Assembly: GCF_030684315.1 (NCBI RefSeq)
Contig: NC_081374.1
Span: 30,850,630-30,914,629 of the forward strand
Reading direction: 5' to 3'
Source of the DNA: Stegostoma tigrinum
Lineage: Eukaryota
DNA: 64,000 nt
In this document: in pieces, positions 1,143 through 52,043 of the stretch
How the letters are laid out: every line of letters begins with the position of its first letter
How positions within the stretch are numbered: the stretch's first letter is position 1
Notes under the pieces: model-generated
Database searches by the model: none
What the model was told of the DNA's origin: nothing
The model's input: only the letters and a program-made list of their open reading frames with translations
Translations under genes and position numbers: made by a program

Positions 1143-2111
1143 CAGCATAATGATTATAATTTAAAACCTATCAAAATTGCTAATTATATGGATACCGCCA
1201 AAAATGAAATCCAATTGTCCAAGTATACACTAGATCACACTTCAAAGCACTCTCAAATAATATTTATGTGGTAAGTCACCAGTGTGTGTTAGTCATCAGT
1301 AAAGATTTATCCATCACTTAAATGTGTTAAGAATACTTGGAAATTATGATGGGAGCGATTAGATGGGCAATAAATATCCTAAGGATAATGAAAGGACTGC
1401 AAATGTTGATGATTGTCCATGGAATAGTTACATTGCAAGGGATATATGCTTCTTCCAGGCACTCCAAATTGTCCACTCACTTTGTAACAGTGTCACTGGG
1501 TAAATTTAGGAACAGATGTCAAGAATGTTTGCAAAGGGATGATTTTAAGCATGTTATTGCTACCATTAAAGTAGTGGATTGAATTTTGAATTTCACCTTA
1601 CTTTGTTAAGCATTCCTACATAATATTGTCATGTCTTCTGTGGCTAAAAGAGAGTGGCTTCCTTAATTTGTTATTTTCAGTATCATAACAGAAAAATTGA
1701 AGCTTATTGTTTTTACTAATTTGCCCTTCCCTTTAAATATAAGGTGGGCAGAAAGAGGGAATTTGTTGATGCTGCTCCGCATCAATTGTAAATTTACACT
1801 AAGAACTTAGGATCTACAATGGTATATTCAAATAAAATGTGATATTTCATAGGGTATTATCATTTTATTATGAACCACTAAATCCACACCTCTCCCTGGC
1901 CACTTGTTGTGACTGTACCAGCTCTTTACAGCTTGAGCAATGAAGTTGACCTGAAGATGACCTTCTGACTACAAATTCACTCGATCACCAAAATAACACA
2001 CTTGAATCTCTGGGATAATGGGAACTGCAGATGCTGGAGAATTCCAAGATAATAAAATGTGAGGCTGGATGAACACAGCAGGCCAAGCAGCATCTCAGGA
2101 GCACAAAAGCT

Positions 2112-2139
2112 GACGTTTCGGGCCTGGACCCTTCATCAG
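2112..2139 (-). ncRNA. Minimal type I hammerhead ribozyme motif (Neptune pLTR)
   Basis: Reverse complement reads CTGATGA-A-GGGTCCAGGCCC-GAAA-CG-TC. Confidence 0.8.
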
Positions 2140-2387
2140 AGAGGGGGATGGGGAGAGGGAATTGGGATAAATAGGGAGAGAGGGGGAGGCGGACCGAAGA
2201 TGGAGAGTAAAGAAGATAGGTGGAGAGAGTATAGGTGGGGAGGTAGGGAGGGGATAGGTCAGTCCAGGGAAGACGGACAGGTCAAGGAGGTGGGATGAGG
2301 TTAGTAGGTAGATGGGGGTGCGGCTTGGGGTGGGAGGAAGGGATGGGTGAGAGGAAGAACCGGTTAGGGAGGCAGAGACAGGTTGGA

Positions 2388-3630
2388 CTAGTTTTGGGAT
2401 GCAGTGGGTTGGGGGGAAGAGCTGGGCTGGTTGTGTGGTGCAGTGGGGGGAGGGGACGAACTGGGCTGGTTTAGGGATGCAGTAGGGGAAGGGGAGATTT
2501 TGAAACTGGTGAAGTCCACATTGATACCATTAGGCTGCAGGGTTCCCAGGCGGAATATGAGTTGCTGTTCCTGCAACCTTCGGGTGGCATCATTGTGGCA
2601 GTGCAGGAGGCCCATGATGCACATGTCATTTAGAGAATGGGAGGGGGAGTGGAAATGGTTTGCGACTGGCAGGTGCAGTTGTTTGTTGTGAACTGAGCGG
2701 AGGTGTTCTGCAAAGCGGTCTCCAAGCCTCTGCTTGGTTTCCCCAATGTAGAGGAAGCCACACCGGGTACAGTGGATGCAGTATACCACATTGGCAGATG
2801 TGCAGGTGAACCTCTGCTTAATGTGGAATGTCATCTTGGGGCCTGGGATAGGGGTGAGGGAGGAGGTGTGGGGGCAAGTGTAGCATTTCCTGCGGTTGCA
2901 GGGGAAGGTGCCGGGTGTGGTGGGGTTGGAGGGCAGTGTGGAGCGAACAAGGGAGTCATGGAGACAGTGGTCTCTCCGGAAAGCAGACAGGGGTGGGGAT
3001 GGAAAAATGTCTTGGGTGGTGGGGTCGGATTGCAAATGGCGAAAGTGTCGGAGGATGATGCGTTGTATCCGGAGGTTGGTAGGGTGGTGTGTGAGAACGA
3101 GGGGGATCCTCTTAGGGCGGTTGTGGCGGGGGCGGGGTGTGAGGGATATGTTGTGGGAAATACGGGAGACGCGGTCAAGGGTGTTCTCGATCACTTTGGG
3201 GGGAAAGTTGCGGTCCTTAAAGAACTAGGATATCTGGGATGTGCGGGAGTGGAATGTCTTATCGTGGGAGCAGATGCGGCGGAGGCGGAGGAATTGGGAA
3301 TAGGGGATGGAATTTTTGCAGGAGGTTGGGTGGGAGGAGGTGTATTCTAGGTAGCTGTGGGAGCCGGTGGGCTTGAAATGGACTTCAGTTACAAGCTGGT
3401 TGCCTGAGATGGAGACTGAGAGGTCCAGGAAGGTGAGGGATGTGCTGAAGATGGCCCAGGTGAACTGAAGGTTGGGGTGGAAGGTGTTGGTGAAGTGGAT
3501 GAACTGTTCAAGCTCCTCTGGGGAGCAAGAGGCGGTGCCGATACAGTCATAACCTACAAAGAGGCAGGCATAGCTGGGGTCCATGCGGGTGCCCATGGCC
3601 ACCCCCTTAGTCTGTAGGAAGTGGGAGGAA
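2388..3630 (-). pseudogene. Second, inverted truncated PLE RT/GIY-YIG ORF
   Basis: ORFs 3225-3638 and 2388-3194 match the plus arm; premature stop; 22-aa in-frame deletion that removes most of YIDD. Confidence 0.9.
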
Positions 3631-5034
3631 CTCCCCACCTACGTCCATGACACCACCCACGGCCTCCACCTCCTCCAAGACTTCCAATTCCCTGGCCCCC
3701 TACACCTCATATTCACCATGGACGTCCAGTCCCTATACACCTGCATTCCGCATGCAGATGGCCTCAAGGCCCTCCGCTTCTTCCTGTCCCGCAGGCCCGA
3801 CAAGTCCCCCTCCACCGACACTCTCATCCACCTAGCTGAACTCGTCCTCACCCTCAACAACTTCTCTTTTGACTCCTCCCACTTCCTACAGACTAAGGGG
3901 GTGGCCATGGGCACCCGCATGGGCCCCAGCTATGCCTGCCTCTTTGTAGGTTACGTGGAACAGTCCCTCTTCCGCACCTACACAGGCCCCAAACCCCACC
4001 TCTTCCTCCAGTACATTGATGACTGTATCGGCGCCGCCTCTTGCTACCTAGAATACACCTCCTCCCACTCACCCTCCTGCAAAAATTCCATCCCCTATTC
4101 CCAATTCCTCCGCCTCCGCCGCATCTGCTCCCACGATAAGACATTCCACTCCCGCACATCCCAGATGTCCAAGTTCTTCAAGGACCGCAAATTTCCCCCA
4201 ACAGTGATCGAGAACGCCCTTGACCGCGTCTCCCGTATTTCCCACAACATATCCCTCACACCCCGCCCCCGCCACAACCGCCCTAAGAAGATCCCCCTCG
4301 TTCTCACACACCACCCTACCAACCTCCGGATACAACGCATCATTCTCCGACACTTTCGCCATTTACAATCCGACCCCACCACCCAAGACATTTTTCCATC
4401 CCCACCCCTGTCTGCTTTCGGGAGAGACCACTGTCTCCGTGACTCCCTTGTTCGCTCCACACTGCCCTCCAACCCCACCACACCTGGCACCTTCCCCTGC
4501 AACCGCAGGAAATGCTACACTTGCCCCCACACCTCCTCCCTCACCCCTATCCCAGGCCCCAAGATGACATTCCACATTAAGCAGAGGTTCACCTGCACAT
4601 CTGCCAATGTGGTATACTGCATCCATTGTACCCGGTGCGGCTTCCTCTACATTGGGGAAACCAAGCGGAGGCTTGGAGACCGCTTTGCAGAACACCTCTG
4701 CTCAGTTCGCAACAAACAACCGCACCTGCCAGTCGCAAACCATTTCCACTCCCCCTCCCATTCTCTAGATGACATGTCCATCATGGGCCTCCTGCACTGC
4801 CACAATGATGCCACCCGAAGGTTGCAGGAACAGCAACTAATATTCCGCCTGGGAATCCTGCAGCCTAATGATATCAATGTGGACTTCACCAGTTTCAAAA
4901 TCTCCCCTTCCCCTACTGCATCCCTAAACCAGCCCAGTTCGTCCCCTCCCCCCACTGCACCACACAACCATCCCAGCTCTTCTCCCCCACCCAATGCATC
5001 CCAAAACCAGTCCAACCTGTCTCTGCCTCCCTAA
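3628..5034 (+). pseudogene. 5'-truncated PLE ORF: RT (TMDVQSLYT, GVAMGTRMGPSYA, YIDD), Cys linker (PCNRRKCYTC) and GIY-YIG endonuclease (VVYCIHCTRCGFLYIGET)
   Basis: ORF 3583-5034; its first ~15 aa are read-through from the inverted arm; 57-aa in-frame deletion after YIDD relative to the other arm. Confidence 0.92.
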
Positions 5035-5258
5035 CCGGTTCTTCCTCTCACCCATCCCTTCCTCCCACCCCAAGCCGCACCCCCATCTACCTACTAACCT
5101 CATCCCACCTCCTTGACCTGTCCGTCTTCCCTGGACTGACCTATCCCCTCCCTATCTCCCCACCTATACTCTCTCCACCTATCTTCTTTACTCTCCATCT
5201 TCGGTCCGCCTCCCCCTCTCTCCCTATTTATTCCAGTTCCCTCTCCCCAACCCCCTCT

Positions 5259-5286
5259 CTGATGAAGGGTCCAGGCCCGAAACGTC
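5259..5286 (+). ncRNA. Minimal type I hammerhead ribozyme motif (Neptune pLTR)
   Basis: CTGATGA core, stem II GGG..CCC, GAAA, palindromic ACGT helix III, GTC cleavage triplet ending at 5286; HHRs are established PLE components. Confidence 0.8.
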
Positions 5287-6559
5287 AGCTTTTGTGCTCC
5301 TGAGATGCTGCTTGGCCTGCTGTGTTCATCCAGCCTCACATACACTTGAATCTCTGTCAGCCTCTCATGATCTGAGCAAGGTCATAATTTGCTTTTAAAG
5401 TAGATTTTGTTTTTTTTAAATGGGCATTGTTGGATTAATTATGATTGCTTCCAGTCACATGAATTTTGTCAGAAAGCTACAGTTCAATAAACCTCTTATT
5501 GTATAATTACAAAGGACAAAGATAAAGCCACGATCCTCCTGGAATTTCACACCTGCTATTAGTTGGACTTCATAGCCAACAAACACAAAGATAAGTAAAG
5601 GGTTTGTCTGCTGAGTGGAGGCCTGATACAAAAAGAAGCTCGTGAAATTCATTATGCCTAAAGTGATGCAAATGGCTCAACAATTATCTTATACAATGAG
5701 CAGTAAGTTTTTGACCAGGGCATAGAAACTGCTCATTAAATTGAAATGGAATTATCCAGGAGCAGTCATATGAGCAATACTCGTTCAGTCTCTGGAGTGA
5801 TTAATTGCAATCTCTGGACCCCATTGCATTATTGTTTCAAAAATCTAATCTCATGCTAACAGTCTGCTAAGAAGCAAAGACTTGCTGACATCAATTCTGC
5901 CTCCAAAAAAAATAAAACCTTCAAGTGAAACTTGATTCCAGGCTGACAAACTCTGCCTCAGGTATAATTTTTTTTGAAACATGGTTTCAGAATAAAACTC
6001 ATATTCATCTGTAAACTAAACTATGTCTGTACACTGATCTCATCTTGCTCGGCCTGCACTAAGTTAAAAATGAGTTCTGTGACTTCAACAAAATACTTGA
6101 ATGGAAATGAATCCTCACCTGGACGCTGACTTTCTGAACTCAGACAAAAAAAAATGAATTAACGTTTGTATCTTTGATGATTGCTTTATTTTCAGTTGGC
6201 CTGCGTGTTTTCTTTGTTACAATCATCCCCTGCATTTCAAAGCCTGATTTAACCTGAAAGAGAGGTTTCTGAAGAGTCAGTTTTAAAAATTGAACATCAC
6301 AAATAGGACATTTGTCAGAACATGTTACAGTCTATTTTAGAGGGAAGAGTAGGAAAATGAGCAAACATCTCAAATCATGGACCAAAGACAAAGAAGATCA
6401 ATGAAATAATTCAATTTACTTCTCTCACATGTCTGTAACAATCTCCCAGGCATTGTCTGTGTGCACCCTGCTTCAGTTCAACTGTCACTGACACCCTCAT
6501 CCATGTGCTTCTTACCTAGGTTTCAACCATTGCAAAGCTGTCCTCACTGGCTTTTCATT

Positions 6560-11109: not shown

Positions 11110-11470
11110 CAAGATAACACAGTGTGGAGCTGGAGGAGCACAGCAGGCCAGGCAGCATCACAGGAGCAAGAAAGTTGACATTTTGGGTCTGGACCATTCT
11201 TCAGAATTCTTTGATAATACAATGTGAGGCTGGATGAACACAGCAGGCCAAGCAGCATTGTGCTCCTGAGATGCTGCTTGGCCTGCTGTGTTCATCCAGC
11301 CTCACATTGTATTATCTTGGAATTCTCCAGCATCTGCAGTTCCCATTATCTCTTCAGAATTCTTTCTTCAGTCAACTTTTCTGCTCCCCTAATGCTGCCT
11401 GGCCCGCTGTTCTCTTCCAGCTCTATACTGTGTTAACTCTGACTCCAGCATCAGCAGTTCTCACTATCTC
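11110..11470. mobile_element. Older PLE mini fold-back containing a nested younger mini fold-back
   Basis: Outer arms ~11110-11205 and ~11370-11470 are inverted pLTR copies, with the tail on the right. Confidence 0.8.
11213..11352 (+). mobile_element. Young PLE mini fold-back (hairpin plus tail)
   Basis: Apparently perfect ~45-bp inverted arms; TSD TCTTCAGAATTCTTT at 11198-11212 and 11351-11365. Confidence 0.9.
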
Positions 11471-13387: not shown

Positions 13388-15950
13388 AAAAAGACATAGG
13401 AGCAGAATTAGACCATTTGGCTTGTTGAGTCTGTTCTGCCATTTGATCATGGCCATGTTTCTCAACCCCATTCGCCTGCTTTCTCCCCATAACCACTGAT
13501 TCCCTTACCAATCAAGACCCTAGCTATCGCTGGTTAAATACACACAATAACTTGGCCTCCATTGCCCTCTGCAGCAAATGAGTTCTACTGACTCACCACC
13601 CTGTAGCTAAAGAAATTCTTCCTTATCTCAAAAAAGCATCATCCCTCCAGGTCCAAGTCTCTCACACTCGTGAAAGCATTTTCTCCACACCCAATCTATC
13701 CAGGTTTCTCAGTATTCTGCAAGTTTCAATGAGATCCCCATTGAATACACACCTCAATTGTTATTCATATGATAAGCCCTTCAACTCCAGGAACATCCTT
13801 GCAAATCTTCTCTGGACCGTCTCCTACGCTAGCACATCCTTCTTTAGTTACAGTCCCAAAACTATTCATAATATTCTAAATGCAGTCCATCCAGGGCCTT
13901 ATACGGCCTCAACAGTACATTTGTGCTCTTTTATTCTAACCCCCTTGAAATGGATGCTAACATTGCACTTGCCTTCCTAACTGCTAATCGAACATGTATG
14001 TTAACATTAAGAGGATCCTGAACAAGACTTCCAAGTTCCTTTATGTTTCAGATGTCTGTAGCCTTTCTACATTTTAGAAAATAGTCTATGCTTCTAATTT
14101 TCCTACCAAAGTGCATAAACTCACACTTTCCCATATTGTATTCCATCTGCTACTTCTTTGCCCACTCTCCTAGACTGTCCTCCTTCTGCAATCACCTGTC
14201 TCCTAGCACTACCTGTCCCTTCATCTGCCATTGTTTCATCAACAAGCCTCAGTTCCTTCATCCACATCTCAAAACGACTCCTGCAGAACTCTACGAGTCA
14301 CCAACAGCCATCCTGATAAAGACCCCTTTCTCCCTACTCTGCTTTCTGCTAGTCAACCAAACCTCTATCTATGCCAGTATCTTGCCCCTGGCACCATGGT
14401 CTCTTATCTTATCCAGTACCTCCTGTGCAGCACCTTGTCAAAGGTCTTCTGTAAATCCATATAGGTCACTGGCTCTTGTTTGTCTGATTTGCTTGTTACC
14501 TCCCCAAAGAATTCAAACAGATTTATCAGGAATGTTCTGTACCCATCCACAACCCTTTGACAAAGCTGTGATAAGTCAGCCCCATTTTACCATGCACTTC
14601 CAACTGCTCTGCAATTTCATCCTTGATAACAGAATCTAAAAATCTTACCAATAACCAAGGTTAATCTAATGGGCCTATAAGTTTCTGCCTTCTGCATCCC
14701 TCCCTTCTTAAACAGGGTTGTTACATTAGCCATTTTCCAGTAATCCGGGACCCACCCTGACTCCAGTGATTCCTGCAAGATCACCACCAATGCATTTACA
14801 ATCTCCTCAGCTATCTCCTTCAGAACTGTGGGTGTAGTTCATCTGGTCTGGGTGATATGCCTACCTTCAGACCTTTCAGCTCTCCCAATACCTTCTCCTC
14901 AATGACAGCCACTACACTCAGTTCTGCCCTTAATTCTCTTCAAGCTCCGGTATGCTGCTGGTGTGAAATCTGATAAAATGTATCCATTCAGTTCCTCTGC
15001 TGTTTCTTTGTTCCACATTACTACTTCTCCAGTCTCATGTTTATATATAAAGCTTGCAATCTTCTTTTACACTACTGGCTACCTTACTATCAAATTTCAC
15101 CTTCTCCCCCTTTCTTTTTGCTTTTTCGATTATCCTCTGCTGATTTTTAAAGGTTTACCAATGTTTTGGCTTCCCACTAAACTCGACCATATCAATGTTT
15201 TTTTCGAGATAACAAAGTGTGGAGCTGGATGAACACAGCAGGCCAAGCAGCATCTTAGGAGCACAAGATGCTGCTTGGCCTGCTGTGTCATTCCAGCTCC
15301 ACACTTTGTTATCTCGGATTCTCCAGCACCTGCAGTTCCCATTATCTCGGATATTTTTCCTTTGCTTTTATGCTGTCCGTGGCTTACCTTGTCAGCCGTG
15401 GTTGCCTAATCCTCCTTTTAAAATGTTTTGTCTTCTTCGGGACAAATTTCTGCTGTATTGCCCCAATGACCCACAGCAACTCCTGCTGTTGCTGCTCTGC
15501 AGTCTTCATTGTTCGGTTCTCCTGCCAATCACCTCTGGCCAGCGCCACCCCCATGTCTTTGCAGTTACCTTTACTCAGTTGTAATACCATTACACCTGAT
15601 TCAAGCTTCTCCGTCTCAAACTACAGGGTGAATGCTATCATTTTTTTTTCACTGTCTCCTCGGGATTCATTCACCCTAAGCTCCCTCACCAAATCTTCCT
15701 CAGTTTACTTCACTCAACTCAGAACTGCCTGTTCCCTAACAGACTCTACCATAGTCAGCTCCAAAAAAAACCATCCTGAAAACATTCCACAAATTCCTTT
15801 TCTTGGGTTCCACTACCAAACTAATCTTCTCAGCCAATCTGCATATTGAAGTTCCCCAGGATGAGTATAACAGTGGCACCTACCAAAGAAATTTCCAGCC
15901 TTCTTCCCATCAACACCCCAAAGGACAGTCTGATCCAATTTTCCATGATC
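13388..15950 (-). mobile_element. Decayed CR1 (HER1-like) LINE with internal deletions
   Basis: Reverse-strand CR1 tail (acataggagcagaattagaccatt) followed by RT and EN relics similar to 30760-34015. Confidence 0.8.
15205..15348 (+). mobile_element. PLE mini fold-back inside CR1
   Basis: ~55-bp inverted arms, short loop, tail ending ATTATCTC; TSD not clear. Confidence 0.85.
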
Positions 15951-18044: not shown

Positions 18045-18545
18045 ATTTTTTTTGCAGGATGAGGGCATCGTTGGCAATGCCAGCAATTATCTCTAATTGC
18101 CCAGAGGGCAGTTAAGAGTCAACCACATTGGTGTAGGTCTGGAGTCACATGTAGGCCAGACCAGGTAAGGATGGCATTTTCCTTTCCGAAAGGAGATAAT
18201 AAAGGCTGCAGATGCTGGAAGCCTGAGCCGAGAGGTGTTCTGAAGGTGTATAGTCCTGATGAAGGGATTTGGCCTGAAACTTTGACTTACTTGCTCCTTG
18301 GATGCTTTCTGGCCTGCTGTGCTTTTCCAGCCTCACACCTGTAGACTCTCCTGAAGGACCTTAGTGAACTGGATTGGTTTTCCTGACAATTGACAATGGA
18401 TTCATTAATAGAGACTGTTAATTCCAGATTTTCATTGAATTCAAATTCCACCATTTGCTGTGGCAGGGTTTGAATCCATTTCCCCAAAATCTTACCTATG
18501 GTCTCTGGATTAACAGTCCAGCAATTGTACTATTAGGCAGTAGCC
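18045..18545 (-). mobile_element. tRNA-derived SINE family B, interrupted by a PLE fragment
   Basis: Reverse complement matches 40912-41245; tail resembles the family B LINE tail. Confidence 0.75.
18193..18349. mobile_element. PLE micro-insertion: inverted tail plus direct pLTR with HHR-like core
   Basis: gagataataaaggctgcagatgctgg (inverted tail), then ctgatgaagggatttggcctgaaact; decayed TSD tcc(t)gaa(a)gga. Confidence 0.65.
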
Positions 18546-18555
18546 TCCTATACTT

Positions 18556-19102
18556 GTTGTGGTTGCTTCATTCACCAAGCTGGTTCGTTAGTTTGCAGAC
18601 GTTTCATTACCTTCTGGGTAGCATCATCAGTGCAGCCTCCGATGAAATGTTGTTGAATTTTCCTGCCTGGTGTTTAAACTCTGAGGTCAGTTGGATTTGA
18701 TTACCTAATTTCCAGTTTTCCTTCGCAGTGGTGTATATATTGGGTCTAATTCCATATGTTTATTGATGGCCTTCTTGGTGGAGAACGAAGCTTCTAGAAA
18801 TTTCCATGCTTGTCTCTGTTTGGCCTGTCCTTGGATCCACCAAGAAGACCATCAATAAACACATAGAATTAGGACCTATATATATATACCACTGTGAAGA
18901 AAAACCAGAAATGAGGTAATCAACTCCAACGGACCCCAGAGTTTAAATACCACATGGGAAAATGCAACATCACTTTATCAGAGGCTAACTGATGATGTTA
19001 CCCAGAAGGGTAAGGAAACGTCTGCAGAACAACAAATCAGCTCGGCGAGCCAACTAACCACTGCATTCACAATCTGAGCTACAAATCTACTGAAGAACCT
19101 TA
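18556..19102. mobile_element. Older Poseidon-type PLE fold-back; HHR motif at 18989-19022
   Basis: Inverted arms covering the GIY-YIG end and pLTR, homologous to 51280-51610; tail on the right arm only; decayed TSD ..cct(a)tacttg. Confidence 0.82.
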
Positions 19103-20208
19103 GAGCTCCCCTACTTGCTTTATAAACTTGCTGACCAATGAATGGAAATGAACCAAATGATGAAGCATTCTCACAGGTGGAATAGAACGGCTAGATTTCA
19201 GATGATATGCACTGTTGAGATCAAATCATTAAGATTACAGATTTTGTTTCCACCATTACAGTTTGTTAACATAGTCTGTGCTGTCAAACAAAGTCAGTCC
19301 AGTGCAGAGCCATGTGCCATTGATCTTCTTCACACATATGTCAAAGCCACTGTCATAAGTCCACACTCTTCTGAGTGAATATTAATTGACTGTAGCTAAT
19401 TCAACTTCATACAGAATATGTTAAGAGAGGATATTGAGGATACCCTACTGACCCAAGCTCCAGTTCCATATGATCTGATATCATTATGACACAGCTCCTT
19501 TTGCTCATGCTTAATAGCAAAACTTGGACTAAAGTTGTAATACCTAAGACACTTACTGGGTGCTTAACTTAAGTATCTTCTAAAATGAACATTATTAGGA
19601 AACACAGTAATTATTTGATCTCAACAGTGCAGACCATCTGTAGTCTGGCAATTCCATTTCACCAGCAGAGAATCCTTCATCATTTGGTTCATTACATCCA
19701 AAGGTTACCACATGTGCATGATTACTCTGGGAACCATTGTAACATGATCTGTTTAGACATGCAGAAAACCTTTGTGGTTCAGGAGAGCACCAGGCTGAAG
19801 AGCGGACCATCACCCATCCATTCCTAAGGTGCTTATTTCAGGGCATCCATCCAAAACATAAGCTGTCTGTAATGAAGTCAATGTTTATGTTTATGATATA
19901 CAATTAAATTCATCTTTAACAATAATAGTAATGTTTCCAACTTGCATTAAAAGGTTAAGTGAAGAGCACAGAAACCAGATGAACTCCCACTCCTAACTGA
20001 AAGGGTGACACATGTAAGCCAACTATGTCCATATCTATGAGTGTAAAATAAATACCCATGCCATTTACATTCAGGTCTTTTTTAGTGTAAAAATATATCT
20101 TTTGGAATATTAAAGCTTTGATCTTGTCAGAACATTAAAAAATAAAATTTTCTGTTTACTTTTTGCATTTTTTGAGTTTCATCAGAAACAGGAGAATTCT
20201 TTTCAGTA

Positions 20209-20384
20209 GAGATTACAAGGTGTAGAGTTGGGTGAACACAGCAGGCCAAGCAGCATCAGAGGAGCAGGAAAGCTGATGTTTCGGGAGCCTTCCTGCTCCT
20301 CTGATGCTACTTGGCCTGTTGCGTTCACCCAACTCTACACCTTGTAATCTCAGATTCTCCAGCATTTGCAATTCCTACTATCTC
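20209..20384 (+). mobile_element. PLE mini fold-back
   Basis: ~65-bp inverted arms plus tail; TSD GAAT(T/A)CTTTTCA(G/C)TA at 20194-20208 and 20386-20400. Confidence 0.88.
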
Positions 20385-20889
20385 TGAATACTTTTCACTA
20401 ATTGTTTTGTGCCTAATTTTATTGAAAGAAGTTTAATTATTATTTGTTTAATACAGTCAATTCACTTTTCCATTGTTTTCAATGTGTCAAAAGAACAATA
20501 ACTGCATTTATACGGTTTAAAGTAATTGGAAGAAAACTGAGGGGATTAGTTGACTTCTAGTTTCAGATTATGTGATCTCTAGACATATGAACTTAAAATT
20601 GGGATGCTTTATTTAGAAGAAAAATCTTGCATTTTCAAATAGGTTAATGCATTCTTCTTGAGGCTTATAAGGCTTCACAACCAATGAATTAATTTGAAGT
20701 GGTGTCACCTCCTTTATTTCAGGAAGGTTACATGTTTGTTTTAATTATATTCTTCTATTAAATAGAAAGAATATTACACATTTCACATATGCTGCTCTGC
20801 TACACAGGACCTTGTAACATTAGAGGCAAAAGGACTGTATTGCTTTTGGATGTAATGTTATGAGACCATTCTTTTAACATTACAAATGA

Positions 20890-21360
20890 ATGTAATAGGA
20901 ACTGCAGAGTGAGGGTGTTGTACTGAAATGAATGCAAGCACAGGTTGTAGCACAGCTTGAAATTGGCAGGTATGCTGTTGTGGGCATCACAGAAACCTGG
21001 TTACAAGGCGATCAGGTCTGGGGCTAAATATCTAAGGATACACATCCTATTGCAAGGATAGACAAATGAGCAGGCAGGGCAAGGTTGCCTTATTAGTATG
21101 AAATGAAATTAGCAAGTGGCATGGTGGTTCAGTAGCTAGCACTGCTGCCTCACAGTGCCTGGGCCACAATTAAGTTTTATAATATAGATGGATAGCAAGA
21201 AGTGATATAATGTCGGAAGGTGTAGAATCTGTGTGGATTGAGTTTTAAAAAAAGCTGCAAAGAAGGAAAGATTTTGATGGGAATTGTATGTGAGCCTCCT
21301 AGTAATGGTTAGGACATGGGGAAGAAAATAAATCAGGAAACAGAAAAGGCATGCGTAAGA
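20890..21360 (+). mobile_element. CR1 endonuclease-region relic with a SINE head fragment at ~21116-21165
   Basis: gttgtgggcatcacagaaacctggttacaagg (VVGITETWLQ) and GIVxxPPS-like motif. Confidence 0.7.
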
Positions 21361-21361
21361 A

Positions 21362-21680
21362 AGAATTTCATAGATTCCCTACAGCATGGAAACAGGCACT
21401 TTGGCTCAACTAGTCCACACTGACCCTTGGAGCATCCCACCCAGGCCCAGCCCCTATATAACATACACACCCCTGAACACTACAGGCAATTTAGAACAGC
21501 CAATCCACCTAACCTGCACATCTTTGGACTGTGGGAAGAAACCAGAGCACCCAGAGGAAACCCACACAAACACAGGGAGAATATGCAAACTCCTCACAGA
21601 GGACAACCTGAAGATGGAATTGAACCCAGATCCCTAGTACTGTGAGGCAGCAGTGCTAACCACTGAACCATCATGCCACC
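21362..21680 (-). mobile_element. HE1-like V-SINE
   Basis: Reverse complement of the family at 16807 and 42474. Confidence 0.85.
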
Positions 21681-23601: not shown

Positions 23602-23793
23602 AGAGATGATAGGAACTGCAGATGCTGCAGAATCCGAGATAACAAAGTGTGAAGCTGGATGAACACAGCAGGCCAAGCAGCATCATAGGAGCAGGGAGGC
23701 TGACATTTCGGGCTAGGCCCAAAATGTCAGCCTTCCTGCTCCTATGATGCTGCTTGGCCTCCTGTGTTCATCCAGCTCTACACCTTGTTACCT
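23602..23793 (-). mobile_element. PLE mini fold-back (tail on left)
   Basis: Inverted arms pivot at gggctaggccc (HHR stem II); decayed TSD aggatc(c/t)tgt. Confidence 0.85.
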
Positions 23794-24297: not shown

Positions 24298-24426
24298 AAA
24301 TTGAAGAAGGGTCCAAACCCAAAGCGTCAAGTTTTCCTGCTCCTCTGATGCTGCCTGGTCTGCTGTGTTCATCCAGCTCCACACCGTGTTATCTCAGACT
24401 CCGGCATTGGCAGTTCCTACTATCTC
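24298..24426 (+). mobile_element. Solo PLE pLTR plus tail, starting at a degenerate HHR
   Basis: tgaagaagggtccaaacccaaagcgtc...cagttcctactatctc. Confidence 0.75.
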
Positions 24427-24499
24427 TGAGTAAGACATTGAAATGTGTAGAAAGTACAGGACAGTAATAAGCCACTCAGCCCAAAAACTTCATGCTGAA

Positions 24500-28005: not shown

Positions 28006-28257
28006 TTGTCCTGTCCACATATGAATGGTTACGGCCTCAATCTGGTAGGATTTTTCAATGCTCCTTTATTCATAGTGCAGTATATCAGATATTTGTAAGT
28101 AAATAAATCTCTCTGTTGTATAGTTTCTAATACATGGCTGCTGATGTCACAATTATGTCAATAGTATCTTACTTTTGCACATCCTAATAGGCATACCCTC
28201 ATGTTAATTTGAGACTAAATATTGTTACTGTTGAAAACACAGATTGCCTGTTTGACC

Positions 28258-29182
28258 TAACACGGTATAGAGCTGGATGAACACAGCAGGCCAAGCAGCT
28301 TCAGAGGAGCAGGAAAGTTTGACATTTCCGGTCGAGACAGAAATGGGGGAGGGGAAGGGGATTCTGAAACAAATAGGGAGAGAGGGGAAGGTGGATAGAA
28401 GATGGATAAAGGAGAAGATAGGGTGGAGAGGAGACAAACAGGTCAAAGAGGTGGGGTTAGAGCCAATGAAGGTGAATGTAGGCTTGGTTTCCCCGATGTA
28501 GAGGAAGCCACAACGAGAACAACAGATACAGTATATCACATTAACAGATGTTCACATGAACATCTGTTTGATGTGGAAGGTCTTCTTAGGGCGTGGGATG
28601 AGGGTGAGGGGGGTGGTATGGTGCAAGCGGAGGCTTGGGGGCCACCATGATGAGGCCACCCAAAAGATGCAGGAACAGTATCTCATACTTCACTTGGGAA
28701 CCCTGTAGCCCAAGGATATCAATGGGGGCTTCACAGACTTCAAAATCTCTCCTCCCCCGACCACACCACAAAACTAGCCCAGCTAGTCTCTGCCTCCCTA
28801 ACCATTCCTTCCACCTCAAGCCCCACTACCATCTCCTACTCACTAAACTCATCCTGCTTCTTTGACCTGTCCATCCTCCCTGGACTGACCTATCTCCTCG
28901 CTAACTCCCCACCTACACTCACCTTTACTGGCTCCATCCCCATGTCTTTGACTTGTCTGTCCCCTCTCACCCAATCTTCTCCTTTATCCATCTTCTATCC
29001 GCCTCCACCTCTCTCCCCATTTATTTCAGAATACCTTTCCCCTCCCCCATTTCTGAAGAAGGGTCTCAACTTGAAGCGTCAAACTTTTTTGCTCCTCTGA
29101 TGCTGCTTGGCCTGCTGTGTTCATCCAGCTTCACGCCGTGTTATCTCAGATTCTCCAGCATTAGCAGTTCCTACTCTCTCTC
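28258..29182. mobile_element. Neptune PLE fold-back with internal deletions
   Basis: Minus arm ~28258-28625 (YCICCSRCGFLYIGET), plus arm ~28625-29180 with tail; TSD CCTGTTTGACC at 28247-28257 and 29184-29194. Confidence 0.88.
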
Positions 29183-39177: not shown

Positions 39178-39385
39178 ATAAAATAACAAAAACAGAAGTT
39201 GCTAGAGAAACTCAACAGGTCTGGCAGCATCTGTGGAGAGAAAGCAAAGTTAACATTTCATGTCCCTTCTTCTGAAACATTATTTCTGCTTTCTCTCCAC
39301 TGATGCTGCCAGACCTGCTGAGTTTCTCCAGCAATTCCTGCTTTTGTTTCTGATTTCCAACATTCACAAGTCTTTGTTTTATTTC
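39178..39385 (+). mobile_element. Old-family PLE mini fold-back
   Basis: ~65-bp inverted arms pivoting in the HHR region; tail on the right. Confidence 0.75.
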
Positions 39386-39671
39386 AATGTTAGCTACTAC
39401 GCTTATCATTTAGAAACAGATTATCTAATAAACATAACCAGTACAAATTTATTATAAAAATGACATTTCAGTTAACAAGCTTTTGTCACTTGTAGATGTT
39501 ATAGAATAATACTACAATGGTTCTATGAGGGATTTACCATTTTAATCAATTACAATTCAAAGGGGTAAATGGAATTTCAAACCAGACAACCTAAATTCAT
39601 GTTTACATAACATAAATTTATTCCAAAGTTATCAACTTCACCAGCATGCAACTACAAAGCAGTAGCCAAGT

Positions 39672-41585: not shown

Positions 41586-41656
41586 TGTAACAGTGTGGAG
41601 CTGGAGGAACACAGCAGACCAGGCAGCATCATAGCAGCAGGAAAGCTGACGTTTCA
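41586..41656 (-). mobile_element. PLE pLTR end fragment (tail-less)
   Basis: gtgtggagctggaggaacacagcag...gaaagctgacgtttc. Confidence 0.75.
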
Positions 41657-42345
41657 AGTCACAGCTGAAAATATCAGACTTTGGAAGCAGAAAGATCCGG
41701 TCTTGGCAAAACTGAAATGGCTGGTGCCGATGGGGGAATCCAAAGGGCCGTCAAAACCAGAATTGAAACTTTCTTTGATCCAATCAGACCAGATCACAGT
41801 CGAGGAAGGCATATTATTATGGGGAGCAAGAGAACTGTCCCGAACATAGGTACTGGCTGAACCGCATCAAGGTCATCCAGGGTTTCTAAAATGAAGATGT
41901 TAGCAACAGGTTATGTCTGGTGGCCAGGATCAGATGCAAACATGCCATATTGGGTGGCATAGTGCTCAGAGTGCCAACAAGGTCAAAAATTACTTCCAGC
42001 AGCTCTCCCATATTTGTGGGAATGTCTATGTACACCCTGGACTCAGGTGCATGTCCACGATGTAGGTCCTTTCATGGGCTCAATGTTCTTCGTCATTATG
42101 ATAGCCTATTCAGTATTGTTGGACATGTGGAGTGGTTCATTCACCAAATATGGGGATGAGGAGAAAAAAAAAGCAGGTATCTCTTGCAACACACACACTC
42201 CAAAAAGTATTGGTCACAAATAACAGGCCATTGTTTACCAACAGGGAACTTGAGTATTTTCTGAAGTCAAATAGCATTTGATAGATAAGGACAAATCCAT
42301 ACCATTCATCATCCAATGGTCTGGGAGAAACAGCAGTCCAAACTT
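41657..42345 (+). mobile_element. Decayed Ty3/Gypsy integrase region
   Basis: QKDPVLAKL, GILLWGAR, HQGHPG..KMKMLA.GYVWWPG, PWTQVHVHDVGPFMG, PYHSSSNGL.E.AVQT. Confidence 0.85.
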
Positions 42346-44014: not shown

Positions 44015-44214
44015 TAATAGTGTGAAGCTGGATGAACACAGCAGGACAAGCAGCATCTCAGGAGCACAGAAGCTGACGTTTCGGGCCTAGACCCTTCATC
44101 TAGGCCCGAAACGTCAGCTTCTGTGCTCCTGAGATGCTGCTTGGCCTGCTGTATTCATCCAGCTTCACACTTTGTTATCTTGGATTCTCCAGCATCTGCA
44201 GTTCCCATTATCTC
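44015..44214 (+). mobile_element. Young PLE mini fold-back
   Basis: ~75-bp inverted arms pivoting in HHR stem II, plus tail; 14-bp TSD TGCTACTGTGTAGA at 44001-44014 and 44215-44228. Confidence 0.92.
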
Positions 44215-47200
44215 TGCTACTGTGTAGACTTCATTCTCATTCTAAAGGTGTAAGCAGCTCACAGAATGTGAAGAAACAGTCATCCTAAAAAGACCATAGG
44301 CTCTCTGAGGCTCCAGTACGCTCTCTTAAGCAAAGTAGGCTCTCTTAATGTCTTTCAATACCCTCAAATATAAGAAGAAACTAGTTTGGAAATATATTGC
44401 TATGCATTTACCAAGGTGGAATCAAAATCATGGAACTTTTCCGACTCAATATTTCAAGACAGCTCACTGCCACCTTCAAGGGCAAATATCGCTAGACAAC
44501 AAACTCCACTGATACTCATGTCCTATGAAAGATTTTGTTAAAAATAAATGCTTGATAGTGCATAATTTAAGAATGCATTTGAAATTTTAATCTTCCAATA
44601 TCACAAATCATATACCAGGTAAGCAGATTCAAGACTGCCTTTCCTCTTCTGTAGGAGGATAAATTGGTAGTAATGCAGTTTCAATAATTAGATGCGTTTA
44701 GTTGGACAATATATCCTGCTGTCTGTCAATACTTCACATTAAGTTTATCTAATGATTGAATGCACATACAGGTGATCGACAATATGAGCTACTTTCATGA
44801 AAAGATCTAAACTGCTTCAAATCACGTAACTGCAGGTTTAAAATAAGAAATGAAATAGTGTTCAGTACCTCTGTAAAACCTTATTTTAAAATTGTCACAG
44901 ACATCCAATATTTGTTCTCCAAATTGGTAAATGGCACAGATACATAATTTTCATTATACCTTTCTTGGTTACTTTCTAAGCACATGGACAACTTGTGGCA
45001 CAAAGCACATGAATTGTAATGGATCAAAACAAAAAAAAAGATTGTCGAGCAATACAATTAGTAAATCAATTTGAGTATAATTTCTTTCTGGTCCGAGGCA
45101 GCTTCTGGCCGGATAATTAAAGCCTTTGATCGTAGAAAGAGCTTATCGGCCTACATGTAGGAGGTAGTGACAGACAGTGTACAAGTACAATCACATGTCA
45201 CAAGGCCAGGGCATATAGTGACAGTAATTGGAAGGGGTATGCCCAATGAAGCAAAAGCAAAGTGGTTGCAGTGGTGGGAACAGGTTGACTATAAATGGGC
45301 AAGCAGTCAACATGATAGAGAAGGCCATCGAGAAAAGAAAACAAGGCAGGCAGCAGAATAAAGAACTACACAACGTAGTTACTAAGAGGCAGCAAAGAAT
45401 GTGGCAATTAATACAACATAGGCAAACATTTTAAGCAGAGTTTGCAGGCATTACATGCAAAACTAAATTGACACCATATTTGGCTAAAATATCGACACAG
45501 GAAAGGTGACAGACAGCAAGTGTTTCCAGGCATTACACTTTTGATTTATGATAGAAAAATAAAGGGAATGGAGATAAAACCTTGTTCTGCACTCAGTGTA
45601 TTTGAACAGGAATGGTTAAATATGTCTAGGAATTAATTTACAAGCAAGTCAAATTGTAAGTACAAATTGCGTTATTGTTGCAATATCGTTCTGAAGAGAG
45701 ACAAATACTACTGTCCTTCGAGTACACAGGTCAGTAGAATAAAAGATCCTACAATCAAAATTAATTTTGCCTGATAACAATTTTAACAGATTCTAGACGG
45801 TGGAAAGAATTTCATTTAAAAAATGGAATTGAGGCATTCACACTTCTATTCAACAAACTATTTGCAATACTATAATTTTAGCTTTGAGAAATCAGACAAA
45901 CATAGATTTAACCATATAATTATAATTGCTTTCTTAATCTTAATCACCTTATTTTGTTTTTAAAAACAACAGTGCAGTATCACACAATTTCAATGATCAT
46001 GTAAGAAATTATTTATTTATTCAAGTATAATTTCAGCACTGGATGTTTTAATTGATTTTATCTCTAGTTTTTTTTAAAGGGTATCCTCCATGCCATAAAT
46101 TAACATTTAAATTAATTCAATAATTTACAGCTGTATTTTTGTTCTCTTCAGTTTCTCAGCCTGTCCAACTGAAGGCAAACTGTACTGAATGTACACTTTC
46201 CTCCTACAGCTGCCATTAAAAGATGACTGTAACTAAACAGTTTAGCATAACTTAATTTGCTAATGTTGACATATCTATTTAAAGCAACATGTTCAGAGCC
46301 AGATCAAAACCAAGTGACTTCTAAAATACATTAATAATCCTTAGCTGTTAAATATTTCAGCTGTCTAACTCAATCCTTATATGTCAGAGTGTAGAAATCT
46401 GTAAGAACCAGTTACATTTCATGCCTGAAATTCAGGATTTGTTTGGGTAGAAGATTCAATTACTGGCTGTTCTATTTACTAGCTGACAGTTTGTGAGAAA
46501 CACAATTACAGAAGGAAAGTAGTAGCATCCTATCCTCCGAAAGAGAACAAAGGGTTGGAACCTATAATTTGATATGGAAGCAAATGGTGCAGTGTACTTT
46601 CTGACCAAATAAATTCCAAGATCAACAGTGCCCCCAAATGGTAACAAAGTGACAACATGATGTTGAAAATAACATAAGCAGGTATGGGACTCTTGAGAGC
46701 AGTTTCCCTTTTTGGAAAAAAACAAGGATTTTTGATGAATTAAAGACCAAATAATAACCAGAATGGCACCACGAGTGAAAGAAACTCGAATGGATACCTA
46801 GCATAACATTTATCAAAGTAAGGTTGGTTGAGGAAGAAGACTGAAGCCAATTTTGGGCATCTCTGATTTTGGAAAGTCAAGGCGTTTGAGTTTCTTTCTC
46901 AAGAAAAGAGAGGCTTCTCAGTCAAATAATTTATATTTTCAAGATTGTGCGGAAAATGGACTAAGCTGGTCACTGCATATTGTTAACCATGGCAATTCGA
47001 TCAAATAACAGGGGCACAAGATAAAAATGAACAAGTTATAAGTGAGAAAGGTAGGTTACATGAAATGATTCTATTTTCCTCCAAAGGTTAGAGACTTGCT
47101 CCATAAATTACCAAGGAAGATAATCAAAGACAGTATAAGTAGATTGAAAAAACAATGAAAAATGAGTCTGGGAAAAGAAAACTCTGATGGTCAGTGACCT

Positions 47201-49593: not shown

Positions 49594-50458
49594 ACCTTCC
49601 CCCGCAACCGCAGGAAATGCTACACTTGTCCCCACACCTCCTCCCTCACCCCCATCCCAGGCCCCAAGATGACATTCCACATTAAGCAGAGGTTCACCTG
49701 CACATCTGCCAATGTGGTATACTGCATCCACTGTACCCGGTGCGGCTTCCTCTACATTGGGGAAACCAAGCGGAGGCTTGGGGACCGCTTTGCAGAACAC
49801 CTCCGCTCAGTTCGCAACAAACAACTGCACCTCCCAGTCGCAAACCATTTCCACTCCCCCTCCCATTCTCTTGATGACATGTCCATCATGGGCCTCCTGC
49901 ACTGCCACAATGATGCCACCCGAAGGTTGCAGGAACAGCAACTCATATTCCGCCTGGGAACCCTGCAGCCATATGGTATCAATGTGGACTTCACCAGTTT
50001 CAAAATCTCCCCTTCCCCTACTACATCCCTAAACCAGCCCAGCTCTTCCCCCCCACCCACTGCATCCCAAAACCAGTCCAACCTGTCTCTGCCTCCCTAA
50101 CCGGTTCTTCCTCTCACCCATCCCTTCCTCCCACACCAAGCCGCACCCCCAGCTACCTACTAACCTCATCCCACCTCCTTGACCTGTCCGTCTTCCCTGG
50201 ACTGACCTATCCCCTCCCTACCTCCCCACCTACACTCTCTCCACCTATCTTCTTTACTCTCCATCTTCGGTCCGCCTCCCCCTCTCTCCCTATTTATTCC
50301 AGTTCCCTCTCCCCATCCCCCTCTCTGATGAAGGGTCTAGGCCCGAAACGTCAGCTTTTGTGCTCCTGAGATGCTGCTTGGCCTGCTGTGTTCATCCAGC
50401 CTCACATTTTATTATCTTGGAATTCTCCAGCATCTGCAGTTCCCATTATCTCTTATCA
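49594..50458 (+). mobile_element. Young Neptune PLE 3' fragment nested in the Poseidon pLTR arm; HHR at 50325-50352
   Basis: Intact GIY-YIG frame (ORF 49585-50100); 12-bp TSD CTGGTGTTATGT at 49582-49593 and 50459-50470. Confidence 0.93.
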
Positions 50459-51496
50459 CTGGTGTTATGTCCCGCTTTCTATTTATCTGTTTAGGTTTCC
50501 TTGGGTTGGTGATGTCATTTCCTGCGTTGGTGATGTCACTTCCTGTTCTTTTTCTAAACAAATTACAGGAAACCTTCAAGACCATCAATAATACCCTTAC
50601 TGGCATAACATTCACAAAAGAGGAGGAAAACAACAACAAACTGCCATTCCTAGATGTCACAGTAGAGCGAACAGCCAATGGGGAACTTCAAACCAGCGTC
50701 TACAGGAAAACAACACATACGGACCAAATACTAAACTACAGGAGCAACCATCCCAACACCCACAAACGAAGCTGCATTAGAACATTATTCCAATGAGCCA
50801 CCACACACTGCAGCACAGAGGAACTATGAAGAGCAGAAGAAAATCACCTATACAGCGTATTCAAAAAGAATGGGTACCCAATGAACACAGTCCGCCGATT
50901 TCTCAGCAACAAACCCAAACAAACAGACAAAACAGTCAGAAACGATAACCACTCTCCCCTACATCAAAGACATTTCCGAAATGACTGCCAGACTACTCAG
51001 ACCTCTTGGCATCTGGGTAGCCCACAAACCCACCACACACTAAAACAGCAGCTAGTGAACTTAAAAGACCCTATACAGACAACAAATAAAACGAACGTCA
51101 TCTACAAAATACTTTGCAAGAACTGTGACAAACACTACATTGGACAAACAGGCAGAAAGCTAGTCACCAGGATACATGAACATCAACTAGCCACAAAACG
51201 ACATGACCCACTGTCACTAGTATCCTTGCATAAAGATGAGGAAGGACACCACTTTGATTGGGACAACACATCCATCCTAGGACAAGCCAAACAGAGACAC
51301 GCACGAAAATTCCTAGAAGCATGGCATTCCAACCGGAACTCCATCAACAAACACATTGATTTGGAGCCAATCTACCATCCTCTCAGAAAAAGAACAGGAA
51401 ATGACATCACCAATGCAGGAAATGACATCACCAACCCAAGGAAACCTAAACAGATAAATAGAAAGCAGGACATAACACCAGCGTTTCGTCGGAGGC

Positions 51497-51536
51497 TCAC
51501 TGATGATGTTACCTAGAATGGTGACGAAATGTCTGA
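51497..51536 (+). ncRNA. Type I hammerhead ribozyme motif (Poseidon pLTR)
   Basis: TCA-CTGATGA-T-GTTACC-TAGAAT-GGTGAC-GAAA-TG-TC-TGA: stem I TCA/TGA, 6-bp stem II, GTC cleavage site at 51533. Confidence 0.8.
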
Positions 51537-51954
51537 AAACTAACCTTCCAGCTCAGCGAGCAAACTCACATCCAGAACCTCAACCTGAGCTACGAATCTT
51601 CTCAAAACTCACTAATAAAGCATTACTGAGAGAAACAATCAGAAAGTCCACGCTGTTATTACAAGCCCCTGGAACAGGTGGGACTTGAAAACAATCCTGA
51701 TCCTGAACTAAGTAATTCTAATGCTCAAGGAGGGTGACATCCTTGGCTATTGGTAAAACCCTCTCAGTGATGGGCAACCCACAGACACAGTGCTACCATC
51801 TGATTTTACAATCCTACCGTCTGTAAGCCTGCTCCTGGAGAGATTGTGATCAGCGAAATTCCACGCTACAGCACTTATCAGGAAAAATAAGTCCTGAGCC
51901 AAATGGGAACAATATTCAAAGGGAACCTCTCAAAAGATGACTGATTTTATGGTT

Positions 51955-52043
51955 GATAACAAGGTATACAGTTCGATGAACACAGCAGGCCAAGCAGCAT
52001 CATAGGAGCAGGAAAGCTGATGTTTCGGCCCTAGACCCTTCAG
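51955..52043 (-). mobile_element. Solo PLE pLTR fragment (tail-less), ending in the HHR core
   Basis: gataacaagg...gaaagctgatgtttcggccctagacccttcag. Confidence 0.8.

Follow-up and report, generated by a model that had tools for sequence, protein, structure and literature searches.

Results of our analysis indicate that the short hairpin insertions of the Stegostoma tigrinum genome represent a Neptune-like Penelope element in its shortest inserted form, twin cDNAs having probably run off the 5' end of the element's RNA at about position -31 and been joined anew at each insertion site; we put the probability of this reading at about 0.7. The hairpins are likely to be by-products at a dead end, for which the beginning of uncut RNA served as template, rather than a mobile family in its own right made by a ribozyme.

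In the window, that is, the whole stretch of 64,000 nt that was analysed, all seven hairpins and three solo copies named in the preliminary description of this DNA are present where it had placed them. The design ascribed to them (inverted pLTR, direct pLTR, tail, PLE origin) is borne out, with a clear TSD in several cases. Ends of arms are given below relative to the predicted hammerhead cut, +1 being the base right after GAAACGTC.

20209-20285, minus strand: focal hairpin, inverted arm; element -10 to about +67, tail-less, family B
20286-20386, plus strand: focal hairpin, direct arm; +1 to +101, tail included
20194-20208, plus strand: focal hairpin TSD, left copy, 15 bp; right copy at about 20386-20400, with 2 mismatches
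11110-11470: outer family-B hairpin, arms -29/-2, with a younger family-A hairpin inserted at its pivot
about 11213-11353: inner family-A hairpin, arms +19/+6, TSD of about 12-14 bp
15205-15349: mini hairpin, arms about +6 (0 by the aligner)/+16, entirely downstream of the cut
23602-23793, minus strand: mini hairpin, pivot in stem II, arms -19/about -18 (-6 with one reference), tail on the left
39178-39400 (right end approximate): family-C hairpin, inverted arm to about -31, direct arm from about -7, by eye
44015-44215: family-A hairpin, arms -25/-16, TSD of 13-14 bp
24298-24428, plus strand: solo copy with tail, end at about -26 to -29
41586-41660, minus strand: solo copy without tail, end at about -12
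51955-52041, minus strand: solo copy without tail, end at about -22
50321-50453, plus strand: intact family-A reference end; -31 is 50321, hammerhead core from 50325, predicted cut after 50352, tail end 50453
2014-5341: long insertion built in the same way, its two inverted arms of kilobase length, with remnants of RT and GIY-YIG, Cys-rich linker and 15-bp TSD
2116-2139 and 5259-5282: hammerhead motifs of the long insertion 2014-5341
28255-29181: family-B insertion of medium length, again built in this way, TSD of 11 bp

A TSD is visible at 20209, at 44015 and at the inner copy at 11215, and weakly at 23602; no clear TSD was found at the outer 11110 copy, at 15205 or at 39178. The start of the focal direct arm at the AGC that follows the cut (+1), on which the preliminary description had laid weight, was confirmed, but this is one arm of 14, and its partner arm extends to -10. 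Five of the seven window hairpins include bases from before the cut. The placing of every pivot within ~25 nt of the cut is largely an effect of picking copies of 140-210 bp, since with 3' ends fixed at ~+65 and ~+101 such a length forces the pivot to lie near the ribozyme. The insertions at 2014-5341 and 28255-29181, which share the design and have distant pivots, had been omitted.

Several other repeats lie in the window. At 18150-18350 lies a further pLTR family (D, the fourth), whose stem I differs, apparently as an inverted tail-first piece followed by a hammerhead-bearing arm. A second PLE remnant, Poseidon-like, spans 50459-51577; it has GIY-YIG but no visible Cys linker, carries inverted arms of 97 bp and its own hammerhead-like motif near 51497-51535, and abuts the tail of a family-A copy. 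Two further long inverted-repeat insertions occupy 18559-19061, which resembles the end of this second PLE, and 19147-19693. A SINE-like 5' end is present in two inverted copies (21116-21163 and 21632-21679), which we take to resemble the shark HE1 SINE.

The parent of the hairpins is, to judge by the Cys-rich linker in its translation, a Neptune-like Penelope element. The damaged copy at 3574-5034 matches RVT_1 (E=3.6e-4) and GIY-YIG (E=1.4e-3), both below the Pfam gathering scores. A single ORF with RT and C-terminal GIY-YIG, the arrangement of an EN+ PLE, is continuous with the hammerhead region, and its translation has two CxxC-like pairs ahead of the GIY-YIG motif, a Cys-rich linker between RT and EN being a Neptune feature (PMC3846280). 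Walking along the element, +1 to +101 runs on into the 5' UTR, with an ATG at +139, so that the ribozyme motif, like both 3' ends, belongs to the first part of the transcription unit; full-length copies extend beyond +101 into the ORF. The motif is a predicted minimal type I hammerhead, with the core CUGANGA / GAAA / NUH, stem II and stem I, and occurs intact four times in the window, versus 0.21 expected. The Rfam search of the window returned no hammerhead family, its best matches being sub-threshold miRNA models. Stem I has 2 bp in family A and 4 bp in family C; among 153 motif matches its first pair is conserved in 95% and its second in 93%. In certain hairpins (L129, 7918-8148, and similar ones), symmetric -29/-29 joints rebuild a 4-bp stem I of the family-A motif, which the long hairpin would be likely to trap.

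The genome searched comprises 3.2 Gb in 835 contigs. Of 180 random 10-kb stretches requested, 153 existed (1.53 Mb), so that the sampling covers large contigs only, and this sample holds 82 mini hairpins with a median length of 202 bp, or about 54 per Mb, which scales to a copy number of the order of 170,000. Exactly one tail is present in 73 of them, and the 3' ends lie at about +65 and +101. A TSD of at least 8 bp, mostly of 12-18 bp, flanks 60 of the 82, versus 1 of 82 in the control with shuffled flanks, and the hairpins thereby combine the inverted pLTR, one-sided tail of 30-40 bp and TSD of EN+ PLE insertions. An arm reaching -5 or further upstream of the cut occurs in 76 of the 82, and therefore the template was not the 3' cleavage product, which lacks that sequence. 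Both arms begin at or after +1 in six of the 82; in the focal hairpin they begin at -10 and +1.

The two arms of a hairpin appear to be separate cDNAs. Among 75 hairpins in which arm length was compared, the tail-less arm is longer in 37, the tailed arm in 21 and the arms are equal in 17. Fold-back of a tailed cDNA was rejected as their origin, since the tail-less arm is so often the longer one, as two separately primed cDNAs would give. Within one insertion, subfamily variants are discordant between arms at 59 of 757 sites, versus 7,403 of 17,749 for random pairs, which indicates one RNA or one source and gives no support to two different source RNAs per hairpin. The junctions comprise 29 with overlap, 10 blunt and 43 with inserts, symmetric blunt joints at -29 to -32 being common. 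Many inserts of the class with a spacer of 72-82 nt, among the matches listed, are copied from nearby sequence, and such locally copied junction inserts resemble polymerase theta end joining. The arms stand head to head, and not as the head-to-tail tandem units, each with a hammerhead, of retrozymes. At one locus (L219), an inverted arm bearing the tail lies in front of a full-length copy.

The positions at which arms stop carry the main argument. Of the 357 arms of families A and B in the sample, six were too short and four ran into the edge of a stretch; the other 347 were scored, the references being the 63 natural long copies left from 69 candidates after 6 had been taken out by hand. Stop rates, which omit nine arms with ends beyond +40 and take L214/L215 as one count, reach 0.057 per base at -35 to -28 (97 of 212 arms at risk), so that about half of the arms pass; at the cut (-1 to +5) the rate is 0.005 (11 of 304), 11 times lower, and beyond the peak (-60 to -36) it drops to 0.002 (6 of 115), which forms a cliff. 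Elsewhere it is 0.005 at +6 to +20, 0.008 at -19 to -10 and 0.022 at -27 to -20. The peak at -35 to -28, the 5' edge of the ribozyme, is alike in tailed and tail-less arms, in arms at least 93% identical to the reference and in family B. Family C was scored on 116 of its 124 arms with a seven-copy profile, which fixes the ends with an accuracy of several bases; 53 of the 77 arms that reach the first C of the core end at most 9 bases upstream of it, and 7 of 112 end near the cut. A strong pile-up of ends in the hammerhead region of more than one family, as first described, is therefore real (families A, B and C), but the histogram of 5' ends has neither a main peak at the cut nor a smooth decay: it breaks off at the 5' edge of the ribozyme.

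An alignment artefact caused by the divergent upstream tract is unlikely, as the peak is kept in arms at least 93% identical to the reference and in spacer counts that use no reference. A splice junction at -31 was rejected, since the arms that end there lack a common upstream exon. One locus (L148) carries a direct 37-nt duplication of the -34 to +3 stretch. The reference-free count was made genome-wide for family A from the spacer between the +1 motifs of the two arms. A spacer of 56-66 nt, which corresponds to a pivot near -31, occurs in 8,682 hairpins; 733 have 72-82 nt, and most of those listed still end near -31, with short locally copied inserts. The remaining classes are 20-30 nt (2,064 hairpins), 0-10 nt (89) and a 4-nt overlap in which AGCT at +1 to +4 is the pivot (709). 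Pivots near -31 thus number 8,682 and those near the cut 798. The five bins total 12,277 hairpins, bins 11-19, 31-55, 67-71 and above 82 nt being left out, and the AGCT class makes up at most 6% of them (709 of 12,277), a share lower still once the left-out bins are added.

These observations may be accommodated by the following course of events. The RT-endonuclease of the element would cut both target strands 12-18 bp apart, and each target 3' end would prime a cDNA at +101 or about +65, inside the 5' UTR of the uncut RNA. Both cDNAs would then run to the 5' end of the RNA near -31, most likely its transcription start, and their two ends would be joined by microhomology-mediated end joining of the host, the loss of one cDNA leaving a solo stub. 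Such stubs would be unable to move again, as they lack the RNA downstream of +101. The protein of Anolis Poseidon cuts and extends both strands in vitro, and its two internal RT starts flank the tail; shortening the RNA at its 5' end shortens the products, ribozyme cleavage is dispensable and RNA downstream of the start sites is required (PMC11167929). These in vitro data come from a different clade than the Neptune-like parent.

The assignment of -31 as a transcription start draws on the cliff, on initiator-like motifs and on Drosophila Penelope, in which a transcription start and an internal promoter lie within the pLTR (PMC2377424). In all three families (A, B and C) an initiator-like motif precedes the core by 4 bases; these motifs are weak evidence, as each reference contains 5-11 of them per ~300 nt, and the three families are related to one another. 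An extra G before the ends, a possible trace of a cap, is not in excess (9 of 33 vs. 11 of 47). When full-length copies reach the region for a second time, none of 10 stops at -35 to -28, the nearest ending at -38 (P=0.002 at the first-pass rate), the 10 having been taken from the best 40 matches to one subfamily, so that they may share a master. The lack of a second-pass stop implies that long copies need another template, either a read-through tandem or a circle.

The transcription start has a competitor in a block on a longer RNA. Either a protein bound to the upstream pyrimidine tract or to the hammerhead would serve as template boundary, or trimming by a 5'-3' exonuclease would proceed as far as the 5' edge of the ribozyme. 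We regard such a block as unlikely, although several observations agree with it. A template boundary of this kind is analogous to that of a telomerase-like RT. The RT of PLEs is indeed telomerase-like (PMC11167929), about half of the arms pass the -31 stop, and, although the families differ in upstream sequence, this stop falls at the 5' edge of stem I (which has 4 bp in family C), where a block by a nuclease or a protein would be expected to place it. However, a stall intrinsic to the sequence is made less likely by the absence of a second-pass stop (0 of 10), stalling of the RT by a folded ribozyme should occur at the ribozyme's 3' side, a region of low stop rate, and the symmetric blunt joints at -29 to -32 are common. 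It is less probable still that the hairpins form a MITE-like non-autonomous family that propagates itself, each copied as a unit. Their density (82 in 1.53 Mb) and the recurrence of some junctions would suit such a family, but junctions vary widely, and those that recur are, among the matches listed, blunt or microhomology joints able to form repeatedly. One junction with a distinctive insert was examined, and its four occurrences all lie in C1:174-177 Mb, which fits local duplication. The best 40 of 4,969 candidates include no near-identical copy of the 20209 hairpin, the best reaching 89%, so that a self-propagating class left no sign in this search or at the one shared junction. Dispersed copies with one internal structure, as expected of MITEs, were not seen, a limited assessment based on the varied junctions, on that one junction and on the focal hairpin. 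Several hairpins with identical junctions cluster in the same region (G000:C1:174-177 Mb), which suggests segmental duplications.

The reading of the preliminary description, in which hammerhead cleavage leaves a 3' product of ~100 nt that serves as main template and founds the hairpin class, appears the least credible; as the main route it is refuted by the stop rates, with the peak of ends at -35 to -28 and not at the cut, and with sequence upstream of the cut held by 76 of the 82 hairpins. Certain traces at the cut nevertheless speak for it. The 20286 arm starts at +1, as do 5 of the 347 scored arms (four insertions), versus ~1.5 per neighbouring base (P 0.02-0.07). The 709 AGCT pivots compare with about 43 at ACGT, the palindrome that lies 5 bases upstream (extrapolated from 24 of the first 50 matches listed of 89) and about 370 on stem II (from 9 of the first 50 listed of 2,064). 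Moreover, 10 copies genome-wide, beside 115,775 exact intact ones, carry at least 3 extra A's (3-12) exactly at the predicted cut, versus none at a control site, this comparison having one control site and an uncounted denominator, and 3 of the 10 copies could have arisen by palindrome correction; the longest run, 12 A's, is in a long family-A copy (L164, minus strand near 3959-4090; G000:C17:40830693-40830733). Against this stand the small AGCT class (at most 6% of the binned hairpins), the stem I of only 2 bp in family A and the results of Frangieh et al., in which uncut RNA was dominant and no reads ended at the cut (PMC11167929). Cleavage of the kind first proposed thus accounts for no more than a few per cent of the copies, and hairpins made from ribozyme-cut RNA likely amount to a few per cent.

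The AGCT pivots, the A-runs and the second-pass result together fit a cut and re-ligated circular template, such as the circular intermediate proposed for metazoan PLEs (PMC4209133). It is possible, though we hold it only tentatively, that two templates are in use: linear RNA beginning 4 bases before the core, which through internal priming would give stubs and hairpins only, and a cut, re-ligated circle, which would lack an end at -31 and would give the long and tandem copies, the extra A's being ligation scars. If so, the A-run scars would be genomic evidence of in vivo cleavage by the hammerhead of an animal PLE. Read-through tandem transcripts from a few masters, however, explain the second-pass result equally well.

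If the stubs were copied from the start of uncut RNA, as we favour, about 10^5 of them would serve as base-resolution footprints of two priming sites, a stagger of 12-18 bp and a sharp template end, and they predict an RNA 5' end at -31. The minor classes at the cut site offer a handle on in vivo cleavage by minimal hammerheads. Such hairpins could also be mis-annotated as MITEs or microRNA precursors. In the twin priming of L1, both target strands prime cDNA, and the resulting inversion is joined by microhomology. The L1 cDNAs copy different parts of the RNA, whereas here both copy the same 95-130 nt, which yields a hairpin.

Inverted pLTRs, tails, TSDs, solo pLTRs and hammerheads are already published features. 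No description of the stub class or of the -31 boundary was found in the literature covered, outside the scope of which lay subscription papers, Repbase entries and the supplements of PMC11167929. The hairpins resemble published EN+ PLE insertions (PMC3846280, PMC8557442, PMC8969392) in the inverted 5'-truncated copy abutting a direct copy, in the tail at one end, which is of 30-40 bp in those reports, and in the TSD, the solo pLTRs and the palindromic 5' ends of pLTRs. In contrast to the insertions described in the accessible parts of these papers, they often consist of two ends only (median 202 bp), have TSDs of 12-18 bp, reach ~170,000 copies and have their 5' ends heaped at one boundary; a 5'-end histogram of this form was not found in those parts. 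The origin of tandem and inverted PLE structures has been described as unresolved (PMC8557442).

The Poseidon element of Anolis (PAc, PMC11167929) is alike in its two internal RT starts, which flank the tail downstream of the hammerhead, in the cutting and extension of both strands and in a product length set by the RNA 5' end with cleavage not required. It belongs to a different clade, and its hammerhead overlaps the ORF start, whereas the ATG lies at +139 here; the work on PAc, in its accessible part, mapped 3' ends and not genomic 5' ends or hairpins. With the minimal type I hammerheads of PLEs (PMC4209133) our motif shares CUGANGA, the extra A before stem II, G10.1-C11.1, GAAA, the palindromic helix III and the short helix I. 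In contrast to the hammerheads as presented there, the motif here is predicted, and genomic ends mark its 5' edge, with a minor class at the cut. The non-LTR retrozymes (bioRxiv 10.64898/2026.07.22.740005) are likewise non-coding, derived from pLTRs and equipped with a type I hammerhead, but they are described as head-to-tail tandem units, whereas the insertions studied here are head-to-head pairs whose own replication is not evident.
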